A stretch of DNA of 64,000 nucleotides from the IMG/VR virus record IMGVR_UViG_3300040815_002027; one strand, given 5' to 3'. Positions within the stretch are counted from its first letter, which is position 1, and the number at the start of each line of letters is the position of its first letter. Of the stretch, positions 6,272 through 24,854 are shown in pieces. Source of the stretch: a virus. The notes below the pieces were generated by a model. That model was not told the origin of the DNA and did no database searches. It was given only the letters and a program-made list of their open reading frames with translations. The position numbers and the translations under genes are program-made.

Positions 6272-7451
6272 GAATAATTTAAAATATTTAAAGTGGTCTT
6301 ATAATGCTATAAGAAAGAACCAAGGCAAACATGATGTTCAGATTTGTGTGGCAGATGATGCATCTACAGATGGAACTTGGGAGTGGTGTATGCAAATAAT
6401 GCACACAGACTCTAACTTCAATGCGATACGAAACGAAGGACCTAAGAGATTAGGACATACTATTTTGTATGATAAATTGATCAAAGAGGTAGCAATTCAC
6501 GATATTTGTATGATATATCACGCAGACATGTACCTTGCTCCAGGTGCATTAGATGCAATAGAAAGTTATATTAAAGAAAAAACTATTGTTTCCTTAACAA
6601 GAGTAGAGCCTCCTTTACACCCAGATGGGCCAGAAAAGGTTCTTGTTGATTTTGGAACAGAACCTGAAGACTTCAATGAAAATATGTTTCTAGATTGGCT
6701 GTCTAATAAGTATACTCCTAAATCTGACAAAGGTTTTACCTTTGGAGTTTTTGCTCCTTGGGCATTTTACAAGAAAGATTTTTTAGAGATTGGAGGTCAT
6801 GATCCATTATATGCTCCACAGTCCAAAGAAGATTCAGATATCTTTAATAGATTTAAACTTAATAATGTAAAATTTATACAGACTTGGAGAGGAGTCGTAT
6901 ACCACATGACTTGTAGAGGTTCTAGATTTAATCCTACTATAACACAGGTAGGTACAGCTTCTGATGAATGGATGAGGCAGAATATAAAGAGTTCAAGAAA
7001 CTTTATTAGAAAGTGGGGACATTTTGTAAAGCATGATGAATATATGATGCCTATTGTTCCTTCTAAATATATGGTAGTTATAAAACTTATTAACTGTACA
7101 AGTATAAAATTACTATCTGCTTTAGAACCTTGGTGTTCAAAAATATTTACAGATTTCTCTGACTGGGAATCTTATGTTAAATCTGAACAAATTAATACTT
7201 CTTTTGATATGTCTAAAAGAGTATATCCTATAAATAGTATGATTCCTCAATCTGTAAAAGGACTTTTTCTTACAGTAGATGCTCATAATTTTTCTGATGA
7301 AGATTTTTTAGGCATACAAGAACTTTCTATGATAATTGATAATGCTAAAAAAGATTCTAATGATTTAGAAGGACAGATTTTTTCTTTAGGTAATATTAAA
7401 GTATATGTAAATGATTTAACTACTTATGAAAATTTATTAATAAAACTATAG
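6243..7451 (+). CDS. Glycosyltransferase family 2
   Basis: ISLIQPSRN, VADDASTDGT, HADM, IGGHD..EDSD. Confidence 0.85.
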   Translation: MKISLIQPSRNNLKYLKWSYNAIRKNQGKHDVQICVADDASTDGTWEWCMQIMHTDSNFNAIRNEGPKRLGHTILYDKLIKEVAIHDICMIYHADMYLAPGALDAIESYIKEKTIVSLTRVEPPLHPDGPEKVLVDFGTEPEDFNENMFLDWLSNKYTPKSDKGFTFGVFAPWAFYKKDFLEIGGHDPLYAPQSKEDSDIFNRFKLNNVKFIQTWRGVVYHMTCRGSRFNPTITQVGTASDEWMRQNIKSSRNFIRKWGHFVKHDEYMMPIVPSKYMVVIKLINCTSIKLLSALEPWCSKIFTDFSDWESYVKSEQINTSFDMSKRVYPINSMIPQSVKGLFLTVDAHNFSDEDFLGIQELSMIIDNAKKDSNDLEGQIFSLGNIKVYVNDLTTYENLLIKL

Positions 7452-19504: not shown

Positions 19505-20000
19505 CAATAGGCAAAGCTTTTGAATCTCAAATTAAGAATAATTTGCCAGCAACAGAGCAAGGTATTAGGGTTTTAATTAACCCTATATACCACTCTGGTA
19601 GAAAGATAAATGCTGGCGATATTGCTTTATGGGCTAAATTAAGAGAAGAAGATGGCTCTACGACTATAGTACTTATACATCCAGATGATATAAAGATGTA
19701 CTCTTTAGATAGAAAAGTTAAAAAAGTAGATCCAGACCTTCCTTGCATTGTTCTGAAAAATAAAAAATAAGTTATGTTATATTCAATATACGCAAGTCTT
19801 TGCGGTAAAGTGTATCTAGAGGAGTATACGGACCACGTTAAAGCGTACTCCAGATACTCGCAGTTATCTTATAAATTAGAAAAACTATCAAAAAATAAGT
19901 TAGAGATTAGTGATCTCTCTCACGAACTTTCTGAGAATTTAGACAAGCACTGTACGTCTTCTTTAGGTTTTGTTCACTGTGAGAAATTTGAGGGAGATTT

Positions 20001-20717
20001 ATGAAAACAGTAGTTCTTGGAGATATACACGGTTTAGGTGTATGGGAGTTAATAGTAGCTAAAGAATCTCCTGATAGAGTTATTTTCTTAGGGGACTATT
20101 TCGACTCTACAGAAGTAAGTACTTCTCAGCAAATAAATAACTACAATAAAATAGTAGAGTTTAAAAAAAGTGGCGGAGCAGACATAATAATGCTAGTAGG
20201 AAATCACGACTTTCATTATCTTCCTTACATAGACACAGACGATATAAGTGGTTTTCAGAGTCACAGTGAAGATGTGTTAAAGGAACTTGTAGGAAGTACT
20301 TTAAACAATCTTACAATGTGCTATAAACAAGGTAACTACTTATTCACACATGCAGGAGTTTCAGATAATTTCTTACTAAAAGCACAAATAAATTATAGTA
20401 GAGACACAATAGATTCTTCTATTAATACTTTATTTTTGAGTAATCCTCATATATTTGATTTTGATGAAGATTGTGAAGATGCTTCTGGAGATAATAAGGA
20501 GCAGTCCTGTATATGGATACGTCCTAGAAGTCTTATGAATAATTCTCATACTATAAAAAAAGACTATATTCAAATTGTAGGGCATACTACACAAAAGAGA
20601 GTAGATGTAAAAGGAGTAGCTACAGATGGGAGGTTCTATTTTTTAGATACTTTAAGAACTTCTGGACAGTACGGTATTATTGAGTTTAACAATATTACTT
20701 TTAACTCGTATAAATAA
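20001..20717 (+). CDS. Calcineurin-like metallophosphoesterase
   Basis: GDIHG, GDYFD, GNHD, THAG, GHT. Confidence 0.9.
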   Translation: MKTVVLGDIHGLGVWELIVAKESPDRVIFLGDYFDSTEVSTSQQINNYNKIVEFKKSGGADIIMLVGNHDFHYLPYIDTDDISGFQSHSEDVLKELVGSTLNNLTMCYKQGNYLFTHAGVSDNFLLKAQINYSRDTIDSSINTLFLSNPHIFDFDEDCEDASGDNKEQSCIWIRPRSLMNNSHTIKKDYIQIVGHTTQKRVDVKGVATDGRFYFLDTLRTSGQYGIIEFNNITFNSYK

Positions 20718-20723
20718 TAGGTT

Positions 20724-22010
20724 ATGAACTACTATAAGATAAAAAGAAAACAAGTAAAGCGTGATGCTGAAGAATCTTATTACTACGGCACTTCTATAGT
20801 ATATAGGATGTATCCTAATAAGAAGCAGGAGGAGTGGTTAACTGAGATAGGCAACAAATGTCGGGGAGCTTATAACAAACTGGTAGAAGAGTTCTGCCAA
20901 AATCCAGATAAACCCAGGAACTTACCTGGAACTTCTTTAAAGGAGATTAATAGGCTTAGACATTATTTAAAAGAGTTTGACTGGTTAGATGATGTTCCTT
21001 CTATATTTTTGTATAATGTTTGTAATAATTTTATTAAAGGAGTTGATAACTTTTATACTCAAATTAAAAAGAATAAAAAGATATTAGAGAAAGATCCTTA
21101 TGCTACAGTTAGAAAAACAAGTCCCCCTAAAAAGAAAAAGTCTTATAGAGACCTGCATTTTGGGTCTAATAACTCAACTATAGAAAGAAGCACTGCTATT
21201 GACTATGACAACAATAGATATTATTGTTTTACGAAAACATTAAAAAGATTAGGTATTAGTGATTCTTTTAAGATAAAATGTCACAAGAAGTTTTATAATA
21301 GCAAAATAAAAAGAGTTTCTTTTATGAGGGACAGTTCTATGTGTTGGTATGTGTCTTTTGGTTTGGAGCTTCCGCAAATAGATAGGTATGATAAAATTTA
21401 TGTACCTAAAGATAATAGTTTAGGTATAGACTTGGGTGTAAAAACCGCAGCTACTACTTCTGATGGGGTAAAATTTCACCCTCCAGTAGAGCAGATAAAA
21501 AAGTTGGAGAAGAAGATAGATGTTTTAAATAAAGTTATTAGCAGGAAACAAAGATTAGATAAAAAGAATTACTGGAAGAGTAATAACTATAGTAGGGTGT
21601 TGGAGAAGAAGTACAGAATACAGAAAAAGATAAATAACATAAGAGCTAATTATAACGAGTATGTATCTCATGTTCTTACCAAAGGAGAGTATAATAAGAT
21701 TCAGATGGAAGATCTTAAGTTAAATTTTATGGTAGAAAAAAGGAAGAAGAAGTTTGGTATGAGTAGATCGGCAACTCGTTTAGGTTTGGGAAGTTTAACT
21801 AATAAGATAAAATCTAAATCTCAGGTAAGAGGTATAGAGTTTAATAAAATAAATCCTGCAAACACAACTAAGTATTGTAGTAATTGTGGACATATAGAGA
21901 ACAGTTTAACTCTTAATACAAGAGAGTGGACGTGTCCTAGATGTGGTGTTGACCACGATAGAGATATAAATGCTGCAAAAAATATTCAAAAAAGTTTGGA
22001 TATTAGATAA
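20724..22010 (+). CDS. tnpB: CRISPR-associated TnpB/Cas12f-like RNA-guided nuclease (428 aa)
   Basis: YRMYPNKKQ N-terminus; RuvC-I GIDLG, RuvC-II MEDL, Zn finger CSNCG/CPRCG, RuvC-III DRDINAAKNI; adjacent array. Confidence 0.92.
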   Translation: MNYYKIKRKQVKRDAEESYYYGTSIVYRMYPNKKQEEWLTEIGNKCRGAYNKLVEEFCQNPDKPRNLPGTSLKEINRLRHYLKEFDWLDDVPSIFLYNVCNNFIKGVDNFYTQIKKNKKILEKDPYATVRKTSPPKKKKSYRDLHFGSNNSTIERSTAIDYDNNRYYCFTKTLKRLGISDSFKIKCHKKFYNSKIKRVSFMRDSSMCWYVSFGLELPQIDRYDKIYVPKDNSLGIDLGVKTAATTSDGVKFHPPVEQIKKLEKKIDVLNKVISRKQRLDKKNYWKSNNYSRVLEKKYRIQKKINNIRANYNEYVSHVLTKGEYNKIQMEDLKLNFMVEKRKKKFGMSRSATRLGLGSLTNKIKSKSQVRGIEFNKINPANTTKYCSNCGHIENSLTLNTREWTCPRCGVDHDRDINAAKNIQKSLDIR

Positions 22011-22026
22011 AAGGTTTGTAGATTTA
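21995..22026 (+). promoter_or_regulatory. Bacteroidota-type promoter for the tracrRNA/array
   Basis: TTTG (21995) - 20 nt - TAGATTTA (22019), one mismatch to TAnnTTTG. Confidence 0.5.
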
Positions 22027-22029
22027 CGA

Positions 22030-22245
22030 TCTAAGTAAGTTCATTGAAATAATCGCCCGTGTGTAGCGGGTTTAAAGGCTTGCAGATATAGCGTCAACCC
22101 CTTCTTTGCTACGCAAGTGGTAAAGTCGCTCAAAATCTTTCTTTAAAATGAAAGCGAGAGGCCGAGAGGACGCTAGGCGGCTAATGTCGAAAGACATAAC
22201 GTGTGAGAACACACGAAATATCTTTTAAATTGTAGCCTTTGTATA
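22030..22245 (+). ncRNA. omegaRNA-derived tracrRNA-like scaffold with 3' anti-repeat
   Basis: Stems CCCG/CGGG (22056-70), TAGCGTC/GACGCTA (22089-95/22169-75), ATGTC-GAAA-GACAT (22184-97), CGTGTG/CACACG (22200-15); 22216-35 is 17/20 identical to the repeat reverse complement. Confidence 0.75.
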
Positions 22246-22250
22246 GTTAG

Positions 22251-22921
22251 GGTGTATACCACCACAATTTGAAAGGTGTTTACAACTAATGTTAGACAAA
22301 AAAATAAGTATAGCTTGGTATATAGCACCACAGTTTGAAAGGTATTTACAACGGAAACTTAGGTTACCTACTATCTGCTGAAGGTGTATACCACCACAGT
22401 TTGAAAGGTATTTACAACGAAAACTTAGGTTACCTACTATCTGCTGAAGGTGTATACCACCACATTTTGAAAGGTATTTACAACCAAATGAAGAACGATG
22501 CACAATAAGATGTAGGTGTATAGCACCACAATTTGAAAGGTGTTTACAACAGATCTAAAAGAAGAAGCAGAAAAACTTTCAGTGTATACCACCACAATTT
22601 GAAAGGTATTTACAACTAGTACCTATAGTATCAAAGTTAAATCAGAGGTGTATACCACCACAGTTTGAAAGGTATTTACAACTTATGTTATGAAGGTAGT
22701 ACTCCTTATATTGGTGTATACCACCACAATTTGAAAGGTATTTACAAACGGTGTCTCTTTAGCATCATAATTTTAAAACTGTTTACAACATAGCGACATC
22801 AATGTCGTTACCATAGATGGCTGTATACCACCACAATTTTAAAACTGTTTACAACATAGCGACATCAATGTCGTTACCATAGATGGCTGTATACCACCAC
22901 AATTTTAAAACTGTTTACAAC
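22251..22921 (+). CRISPR. CRISPR array: 11 repeats of 36 bp (consensus GGTGTATACCACCACAATTTGAAAGGTATTTACAAC), nine 30-bp spacers
   Basis: Repeats start at 22251, 22317, 22383, 22449, 22515, 22581, 22647, 22713, 22754 (degenerate), 22820, 22886; 66-bp period except a 5-bp gap at 22749-53. Confidence 0.96.
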
Positions 22922-22938
22922 ATTAAAAAATCAAAGTT

Positions 22939-23334
22939 ATGAAAAGAATTAGTTTAGTTTTAGTATTACTGTTATCAGCATATCTTGGGTATTCACAAAA
23001 AGGCCAGGATATTGTCTCTTTAGAAGAGATCTTAGAAACTATAAACACTGGCTTGGAAGATCAAGCCTTTGAAAAATTACGGCAAGAAGCACACTCCAAA
23101 GAAGATAACGTTATCTTTAATGTAAAGTATCTATATCCTAATGTATGTTACAGACAACTAATAACTAAAGCAACAGGACAGAAGCTTTATATACAGGTAG
23201 CTTGTGATGCTATACACGCTAAGAATGGTCTTACTTTTAAAGAAGAAGAGGCGTATGAAAGATACCAGTTTCTTATAAAGAACAAACGTAAATTTGATAG
23301 ATTAGATAGAAGAATAGAAAGAATGCACAATTAA
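22939..23334 (+). CDS. Exported hypothetical protein
   Basis: Signal-peptide-like MKRISLVLVLLLSAYLGYS. Confidence 0.6.
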   Translation: MKRISLVLVLLLSAYLGYSQKGQDIVSLEEILETINTGLEDQAFEKLRQEAHSKEDNVIFNVKYLYPNVCYRQLITKATGQKLYIQVACDAIHAKNGLTFKEEEAYERYQFLIKNKRKFDRLDRRIERMHN

Positions 23335-23525
23335 CACTATGAAAAACTTTTTGGAGAGGTAACTACTGCCTCTCCTTTTTAAATTTTAACTATGAAGATA
23401 CAAACATTCACAAATGCAAATACCTTTTATCTTATTCCAACCTTCTATATTAAGGAGGATTGTGATTATTCTTTAAACTTTACCTGGCTTCATTTTGGAG
23501 TATGTGTAGAAATAATAAAATGTAA

Positions 23526-24854
23526 ATGACACCAAAAGAAAAAGCAGAAGACCTTGTTAACCAATTCAGAATGATATTAATGGCTGAAGATACTGACTGT
23601 GGTAATGAAATACTTTGCACTTCGATAGCAATTAAGAATGCGTTAATATGTGCAGATGAAGTCTTGATGCGAGTGCCTCATAAAGACGTAGCTAATTGGA
23701 TTGCAGATGATTTGGCTGTTAAATATTGGATTGATGTAAAAATGGAATTAAGACAAATGTAATTATAAGAAAAAGCAAAAGAATTAATTGTAAGTATTAG
23801 TCACGATTCGTTTGTAGGAGCATCTTTGAACGCTTCACAAGTTAAGCACATTGTATTTATACATTTAAATAATATGATTGCTGAACTACAGAGTGTTGAG
23901 AATATTTATGAACTTGATATGAAGGGTACTATATCTTATTGGATGAGAGTTAAGGGAGAAGTAATAAAACTATAACCTAAATTACAAATATATGCTAGAA
24001 TCTATACTTGAAAATTACTATGAAGAAGAGTTCTTAAAAGCTGATGGATTTGATGATGCTATTATAGGAGTAGAAGAAAACTCTATGAGACTTATCTATT
24101 CAGTTAAAAAGTGTTTAGAGATCTTACAGACTGATATGGATGAGATAGATGCTATGGAGTACTTTACTTATAATGTAAGTGGAGCTTATATGGGAGAAAA
24201 GACTCCTATCTGGTGTTGTGATTTATTTGAAGATTAACTATAGACTATGAAAAAATTAATAAAAGAGGTACTTAGTAGTTTTGACTTTGAAAAAGTACAT
24301 AAGACTATGACATTTTTAAATTGGACTTGGTATTTTAAAGAAGTACCAAATTTACTTAAGTTGAAAAGTACAGCACAAGAATTGTTAGAAGAGGCTTGTG
24401 GTAGGTGTTTAGAAAGTAAAAAAACAAGTCGTGACATACCTTATATTATTATGACAGGTGGGTTTAGAGTAGAGGCATACCCTAACAAAAAGAGAACAAA
24501 GATTAAAAAGTTAAAATTAGACTTTATATTAACTACATCTTTTGATTATAGATGATGAATATTTAATAAAATTTCGACATAACTTATATTAAGCAAAAAA
24601 TTATGAGTAAAGACAAAAACATTGTGTTGGCATTTAATATTATCAATGCAGTTAGGGATAATAATTGGGAGGAAATGTTGAAATTATTTCCAGAGGGTGT
24701 AGAGCATAGAACGTATAAATACGATAGCATAGAATGTTTTACAGATTGGGAACATTACCAAGATTATGCAAGATATGTAGCACCTGCACGAGATATAATG
24801 AAAGAAAAATGTCTGGACAAAGCACTTGAGTGTCTTAATGTGTATGATAAGTAA
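23526..24854 (+). CDS. Small hypothetical phage genes (23526, 23992, 24247, 24603)
   Basis: MTPKEKAEDL and LKADGFDDAIIG starts are typical of aquatic-phage small proteins. Confidence 0.55.

Follow-up and report, generated by a model that had tools for sequence, protein, structure and literature searches.

The window analysed here, a stretch of 64,000 nucleotides, is part of an IMG/VR virus record of 85.5 kb that is estimated to be 47% complete. A nuclease open reading frame is followed in the window by 240 non-coding bases and these in turn by a CRISPR array whose repeats are 36 nt and spacers 30 nt long (Table 1). The nuclease locus is present as a single copy in the record, and a search of its 85.5 kb for a Y1 transposase (TnpA), Cas1 or a second array found none of them. 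The locus is carried by a phage and the host belongs to the Bacteroidota.

Table 1. Features of the locus and of loci compared with it. Positions without a locus label are those of the window; core pairings are given as anti-repeat / repeat.
Feature	Position	Strand	Remarks
Gene for the 428-aa TnpB-family RNA-guided nuclease (P0001)	20724-22010	+	NCBIfam, Pfam and PDB matches
Promoter, Bacteroidota-type (predicted)	21995-22026	+	TTTG (21995-21998), N20, TAGATTTA (22019-22026)
Conserved scaffold	22037-22215	+	10-locus alignment, RNAalifold, covariation
Scaffold 5' block	within 22037-22215	+	AAGUUCAUUGAAAU
Hairpin P1	22055-22071	+	loop GUGUA (22061-22065); covariation
Scaffold blocks UUUAAAGG and GCAGAUAU	between P1 and P2; UUUAAAGG at 22072-22079	+	conserved
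P2, long variable stem-loop	22090-22174	+	per-locus folding
AGGCGGC block	22175-22181	+	conserved
Hairpin P3	22184-22197	+	covariation
Hairpin P4	22200-22215	+	CGUGUG-AGAA-CACACG; covariation
Anti-repeat	22216-22235	+	AAATATCTTTTAAATTGTAG; pairing, folding, core covariation
Anti-repeat 7-nt core (core pairing, window)	22216-22222	+	AAAUAUC / GGUAUUU
Anti-repeat extension	to 22235	+	pairs with repeat positions 11-23
Linker from anti-repeat to repeat 1	22236-22250	+	15 nt, without terminator
Weak further arm	22240-22245	+	UGUAUA; may pair with the 5' end of the repeat
CRISPR array	22251-22921	+	36-nt repeats, 30-nt spacers, period 66
Core pairing, L003			GGUUAUC / GGUAAUC or GGUAGUU
Core pairing, L005 and L252			GACUACC / GGUAGUU
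Core pairing, L011, L251 and L255			GACUAUC / GGUAGUC
Core pairing, L091			AAUUACU / GGUAGUU
Parapedobacter deserti dCas12f	L257:333-1427	+	arrays L257:2024-5069
Parapedobacter luteus dCas12f	L258:4985-6079	-	arrays L258:1211-4749

The encoded protein scores 194.5 bits against the NCBIfam model for guided TnpB (NF040570, cut-off 100), and the Pfam families HTH_OrfB_IS605, OrfB_IS605 and Cas12f1-like_TNB match it. Its RuvC residues D236, E329 and D414 and its CxxC...CxxC zinc ribbon are intact, and the RuvC residues and the four zinc-ribbon cysteines are invariant across 14 relatives. Among solved relatives, the best by sequence are ISDra2 TnpB (PDB entry 8h1j, E = 6.5e-23) and an AI-designed TnpB-like nuclease, followed by LaTranC (PDB entry 9jfo, E = 5e-15, C-terminal part only) and then by several Cas12f proteins. 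An AlphaFold model (pLDDT 76.6) has ISFba1 and ISDra2 TnpB as its first fold matches, and in the sequence and fold searches alike Cas12f structures rank under those of TnpB. The protein scores below the cut-off of the IS200_TnpB model (NF038281; 138.5 bits, cut-off 425) and of the Cas12f model (NF049972; 45.8 bits, cut-off 450), and far under the cut-offs of the Cas12f2 and c2c8 models. The effector is TnpB-sized and nearer to TnpB than to the established Cas12 subtypes; judged by the sequence signature of the family, it is not a Cas12f.

Protein searches of two very large collections place the nuclease in a small, isolated lineage. Its close relatives are 95%, 76% and 59% identical to it, the next group consists of about ten proteins at 40-46%, and beyond the lineage there is a sharp fall to generic TnpB proteins at about 33% identity. 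The DNA that we compared comprises ten distinct loci of the lineage and one more distant locus (L091, 29% protein identity), and protein identities across these 11 distinct loci span 29-95%. Pattern-based searches yielded one member of the lineage in IMG/VR (L011) and, from metagenomes, the distant L091. A set of 185,579 prokaryote genomes, one per species, contained no recognised member, the best match there being 31% identical. The surroundings of the relatives are mostly phage-like, with rows of small open reading frames without families, and two of the loci are on IMG/VR virus contigs. In two of them (L002 and L003) the locus is syntenic with that of the window and lies behind a metallophosphatase gene. 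Every one of the 11 loci keeps the order of nuclease gene, scaffold and array, with an array or mini-array always present and lying directly 3' of the scaffold on the same strand.

A candidate promoter at 21995-22026 had been proposed in a sequence-only reading of the window, and this segment reads exactly TTTG-N20-TAGATTTA. Its -33 element sits within the end of the nuclease open reading frame. The motif TTTG-N20-TAnnTTT[G/A], which we take to be the -33/-7 promoter type of the Bacteroidota, recurs with the same spacing in the equivalent place, at the stop codon, in ten of the 11 related loci, and T9, A10, T13, T14 and T15 of the motif are invariant in the scaffold alignment. The motif predicts a transcription start near 22033-22038, just ahead of the conserved AAGUUC block.

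The scaffold RNA that follows is about 200 nt long and structured. An alignment of ten loci contains invariant blocks (AGUUC, the CUCGC-hairpin-GUUWAAAGG region, GCAGAUAU, AGGCGGC and the GAGAAC loop), and the stems between these blocks differ in sequence. RNAalifold returns three hairpins, P1, P3 and P4, in which 12 of the 16 pairs show changes on both sides. All of the 160 cells in this structure are paired (100%), as against 27-56% in controls with slid partners, and none of 500 shuffles reaches the observed covariation. The stems that had been seen upstream of the anti-repeat are thus real, and the covariance check on homologous loci that had been put forward with them turned out in their favour, with the core of the anti-repeat co-varying with the repeat as described below. 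The region from GCAGAUAU to AGGCGGC, which contains P2, could not be aligned, but in every locus its fold is a stem-loop that is closed or nearly so. We note that the UUUAAAGG block resembles AUUUGAAAGG of the repeat and could form an alternative 8-bp pairing with the extended anti-repeat; the block is conserved equally in relatives without an extended anti-repeat. Visual inspection suggested tertiary pairings of GCAGAUAU with AUAUC and of UUUAAAGG with the anti-repeat, but neither persists throughout the sub-lineages, and both were set aside.

Two finer points of the earlier reading found no support. The 5' end of the scaffold had been likened to those of IS605 TnpB omegaRNAs; an Rfam scan of 20000-24000 with E values up to 10 gave chance matches in the array only and no omegaRNA family, and an nhmmer profile of the scaffold, run against about 240 TnpB loci, matched only the lineage itself and L091. 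The second concerns the loop of P1, which had been given as UGUAG at 22062-66 and had been suggested to form a pseudoknot with UUACA of the repeat. The loop is GUGUA, one base further upstream, and G22066 is part of the stem as the partner of U22060. It is nearly invariant, being GUGUA in eight of the ten aligned loci and GUGUC in L005 and L256, and this single change is not compensated in the repeat: the repeats of L005 and L256 still end in UUACAAC, and loci with UCACAAC retain GUGUA. Three or four invariant loop-repeat pairs (UGU with ACA) are possible.

At the end of the scaffold, 22216-22235 had been matched to the reverse complement of the repeat at 17 of 20 positions, with two of the three differences giving G:U pairs, and our analysis confirms this. 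Against the consensus repeat 19 of the 20 bases are paired, 17 of them in Watson-Crick and two in G:U pairs, and the segment is the top ungapped 20-mer of the 240-nt leader. Leaders generated from a first-order Markov model (n = 300) gave a mean of 14.7 and a maximum of 17, none of them reaching the observed pairing. The anti-repeat is paired with repeat 1 in the minimum free-energy fold of 22011-22286 (z = -3.2) and also when the tail is folded alone (z = -3.9, 0 of 200 shuffles). When whole leaders were run against repeats in RNAduplex the energies were no better than those of shuffles, because the pairing is AU-rich, and they were not taken as evidence.

In all of the loci, the seven nucleotides directly after P4 pair with the seven repeat nucleotides that precede ACAAC (Table 1). 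Across the 11 loci 75 of the 77 cells of this core are paired, a value that permuted partners equal in 14 of 5000 trials, and at the third core position C-G, A-U, U-A and U-G are all seen. The pairing is lengthened to 17-20 bp in the sub-lineage of the window, and at the 17th position the G-C pair of the window (repeat CACAAUUU) is replaced by A-U in L003 (repeat CCUAAUUU); most relatives conserve no more than 7 nt of anti-repeat. Eight of the nine loci that were folded share the same topology of the tail, consisting of P4, an abutting anti-repeat/repeat stem, exactly five free bases (ACAAC) and the spacer. As judged from these alignments, the pairing of repeat and anti-repeat is under selection.

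Comparison of the individual loci indicates that fused and split forms of the guide coexist in this one lineage. In the window, L002 and L003 a linker of 15-35 nt separates a long anti-repeat from a full repeat, and L005 has a two-part anti-repeat which pairs with both ends of the repeat. The 7-nt core is directly followed by the first full repeat in L251 and L252, and the first repeat is reduced to its 3' part in L253, L256 and L091. The locus with 76% protein identity (L004) has the duplex of the window type cut to a 9-bp hairpin, GGAUAUCUU/AAGGUAUUU, with a short closing loop, which makes it a natural single guide of the form that one would design. Further repeat-spacer units lie downstream in all of the loci, including the fused ones.

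The array of the window consists of eight regular repeats followed by three variant ones (...TTTTAAAACTGTTTACAAC). The variant repeats disrupt two of the seven core pairs with the anti-repeat, and apart from these three decayed terminal copies the later repeats retain all seven. No terminator was found between the scaffold and repeat 1 of the window; the only terminator-like call in the vicinity, a weak candidate, consists of P4 and the AAAUAUCUUU behind it. In the four relatives for which the end of the array is available (L005, L011, L251 and L253), the sole terminator-like hairpin that we saw, reading by eye, lies 3' of the array. The downstream border is kept among these four: a truncated repeat closes the array, and then come an A-run, sequence resembling ATGTTNNCAATATG and a strong terminator hairpin (L005:4690-4760, L011:4700-4775, L251:1640-1705 and L253:3965-4040). 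The window differs in this respect, with the array continuing directly into a 131-aa open reading frame (22939-23334).

Several further features of the arrays were noted. The terminal three repeats of the window (22749-22921) surround two identical spacers that contain the palindrome CGACATTGATGTCG, and repeat 8 nearly abuts the first variant repeat. Spacers 2 and 3 (22353-22448) are one base apart (GGAAACT... and GAAAACT...), which points to duplication of a repeat-spacer unit. The same locus was recovered from six different metagenome samples (L005-L010), each time with one and the same small array of four repeat-spacer units (L005:4420-4655), and there is thus no evident turnover of spacers in that phage lineage. 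The search for protospacers in the window and the whole 85.5-kb record, allowing up to 5-7 mismatches, gave no convincing candidate. A blastn search of the array against the INPHARED phages gave as its best result a low-complexity 33-nt match to Bacteroides phage DAC16 (E = 0.02), and exact 22-mers from three spacers of the window and three of L005 gave no convincing target in IMG/VR. With no protospacer found for any spacer tried, these searches yield neither a PAM/TAM nor a direct sign that the array is used.

The repeat of the window belongs to a family that also occurs in cellular genomes. An exact search of the species genomes with the 3' half of the repeat returned Parapedobacter deserti, P. 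luteus and Tenacibaculum agarivorans. The Parapedobacter loci contain several discontinuous arrays, whose repeat is identical to that of the window at 32 of 36 positions and which adjoin a 364-aa nuclease-dead Cas12f (PDB entry 9n9c, E = 7e-126); one spacer is common to the arrays of the two species. Loci of this dCas12f-sigmaE kind have been published (PMC13472631). BLASTP detected no similarity between the phage nuclease and the Parapedobacter dCas12f. The repeats of the lineage are also identical to the PspCas13b repeat at 19-27 of 36 positions (shuffles, about 12), and they bear the GUUG/CAAC ends and U-rich middle that are hallmarks of Cas13b repeats. Two arrays belonging to this repeat family occur in T. 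agarivorans (L259:57-814 and 6505-7119), where they flank a 1085-aa open reading frame (L259:854-4111, minus strand), a CBASS cGAS-like cyclase and a TIR-domain protein, and the region looks like a defence island. The 1085-aa frame was considered as a Cas13b and not called as such, there being no match to it in the PDB, Pfam or NCBIfam. On the evidence of these repeats, one family serves unrelated effectors in the Bacteroidota and their phages. This sharing may plausibly reflect dependence on the same host adaptation enzymes in trans; for type VI-B, such action by II-C Cas1-Cas2 has been demonstrated.

In our view, 22030-22250 probably encodes the scaffold RNA of a TnpB-derived phage CRISPR effector and serves functionally as a tracrRNA. 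A dedicated promoter straddling the nuclease stop codon would drive a single transcript comprising P1-P4, the anti-repeat and the array. The anti-repeat, lying beside P4, would pair with the 3' two-thirds of the repeat and so rebuild the terminal stem of an omegaRNA, leaving ACAAC and the spacer as a 3' guide. The last stem of the omegaRNA would in effect have been opened, such that any repeat of the array could supply its 3' strand. With repeat 1 the pairing would be intramolecular and would give a natural single guide for spacer 1; for later spacers, the anti-repeat would have to find its partner either in a more distant repeat of the same transcript or, in trans, in a processed crRNA. The nuclease, with its intact RuvC site, would then cut DNA that matches the spacer, the targets presumably being rival phages or other mobile elements in the Bacteroidota host. 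The sequence-only reading had likewise proposed a tracrRNA made by splitting an omegaRNA. What stands of that proposal is a conserved scaffold of a TnpB-family nuclease whose 3' end pairs with the repeat and shows compensatory changes, and what found no support is the resemblance to the IS605 5' end and the pseudoknot. The natural single guide that read-through into repeat 1 was expected to form agrees with the lack of an intervening terminator in the window, with the single-guide fold and with the fused loci.

An alternative is that the RNA is a plain omegaRNA with one fixed guide, spacer 1, and that the downstream repeats are a separate host-type mini-array for Cas13b or (d)Cas12f, or a decoy, which the phage nuclease does not use. 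The close likeness of the repeat to those of the Parapedobacter dCas12f arrays and, to a lesser degree, of Cas13b would fit such an array; yet the array follows the scaffold immediately and on the same strand in 11 of 11 loci with no intervening terminator in the window, and the terminator-like hairpin that we identified by eye in L005, L011, L251 and L253 comes only after the array. Pairing in cis with repeat 1 would explain all of the covariation equally well, and the first unit is fused in cis in L004, L251, L252, L253, L256 and L091. However, the window, L003 and L005 independently have long anti-repeats (17-20 bp or two-part), whereas a 9-bp stem suffices in L004, and the later repeats of the window keep all of their core pairs, bar the three decayed ones. 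The 7-nt anti-repeat of most relatives, which is short for pairing in trans, counts against a tracrRNA and fits a single guide; the searches that gave no protospacer, the identical L005-type array of six samples and the RNAduplex energies also weigh against the reading that we favour. Weighing these points, we regard a single fixed guide as unlikely. It is less probable still that the locus is an inactive remnant, with the inverted match arising from rearrangement of the array (for example an inverted partial repeat) and the locus being a captured element that decays without present function. This would fit the failure to find a target, the duplicated spacers, the degenerate repeats at the end of the array and the static arrays of relatives, but the two-sided changes in the pairing and in three hairpins across proteins 29-42% identical, the invariant catalytic residues and the conserved promoter together indicate that protein, RNA and pairing are all under purifying selection.

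The scaffold RNA with a tracrRNA-like function that we favour has a close counterpart in the TranC class, which consists of TnpB-sized effectors with arrays in which the omegaRNA is split into a tracrRNA and a crRNA (Jin et al., Cell 2025, doi 10.1016/j.cell.2025.09.004, as represented in PMC13565253 and bioRxiv 10.64898/2026.03.27.714800). Members described include LaTranC (PDB entries 9jfo and 9jfq) and, in the preprint, the phage-borne CauTranC9 from a Caudoviricetes genome. About 50 independent associations of TnpB with arrays have been inferred. Both systems have a TnpB-sized nuclease beside an array without adaptation genes. The omegaRNA of TranC is divided in function between a crRNA and a tracrRNA that bears an anti-repeat, a division predicted for the present locus from the pairing and its covariation, and one published member comes from a Caudoviricetes genome. 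By sequence, ISDra2 TnpB (E = 6.5e-23) is nearer to the present nuclease than is LaTranC, whose match (5e-15) covers the C-terminal part only; LaTranC is distant from it and is the only TranC in the PDB set compared. The repeat is 36 nt long here as opposed to 38 nt in the phage TranC9, and the present lineage is also distinguished by having fused and split forms among close relatives and a repeat family shared with host Cas13b/dCas12f arrays. The locus is best described by sequence as a TranC-like or type V-U system, a kind already published, LaTranC being the one TranC member with which it was compared.

The best match in both sequence and fold is to the TnpB-omegaRNA pairs of IS200/IS605 elements (ISDra2, PDB entries 8h1j and 8exa; ISFba1, 8iaz), in which the nuclease is of equal size and the guide lies at the 3' end of a multi-stem scaffold; the fused forms of the relatives look like omegaRNA. 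In contrast to these elements, the locus has no TnpA, shows no sign of mobility and occupies a fixed, syntenic phage location. Its scaffold begins after the stop codon and has its own predicted promoter, whereas an omegaRNA overlaps the 3' end of the gene; an array of exchangeable guides follows, and no sequence match to other omegaRNAs was found in Rfam or among the roughly 240 TnpB loci searched. The locus is therefore not an IS200/IS605 transposon module.

Type V-F Cas12f and the dCas12f-sigmaE single guides of Bacteroidota (PMC13472631; PDB entry 9n9c) resemble the locus in having a compact effector whose long scaffold RNA base-pairs with the repeat, and the repeat of the Parapedobacter arrays is almost that of the window. 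For the dCas12f guide RNA the published account puts forward the same history, a split followed by renewed fusion (PMC13472631). The proteins, however, are not detectably alike by BLASTP, the Cas12f model gives 45.8 bits against its cut-off of 450, and the nuclease site is kept in the phage protein. Type VI-B (Cas13b) systems share with the locus repeats of 36 nt that have GTTG...CAAC ends and are U-rich in the middle, and native VI-B arrays also have spacers of about 30 nt. They differ in that the guide lies 5' of the repeat in Cas13b and 3' of it here, and in that the effector here is a RuvC-type DNA nuclease; no Cas13b gene was identified in any of the loci studied.

The locus offers nothing new in kind, and its particular value lies in the series of fused, shortened and split forms and in the shared repeat family. 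The splitting of a transposon guide RNA is held to be the key step in the origin of type V CRISPR systems (Jin et al., Cell 2025, as cited in the sources above). Close relatives here show fused, shortened and split states of one RNA, which makes the pairing testable with natural variants. They also tie a phage nuclease to a repeat family found with two unrelated effectors of the host, a point relevant to how spacers enter orphan arrays, and in practical terms they provide a 428-aa candidate nuclease with a scaffold defined by covariation. We tentatively suggest, as a possibility that may well not hold, that a TnpB lineage confined to phages has re-tooled the last stem of its omegaRNA for the 36-nt repeat family of Bacteroidota Cas13b/(d)Cas12f arrays; the nuclease could then use arrays built by host Cas1-Cas2 in trans, and it might load host crRNAs. 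If this were true, the lineage would provide a natural series for the transition from omegaRNA to tracrRNA and crRNA, and would point to a split that is reversible and driven by the kind of repeat that the host adaptation machinery can extend.
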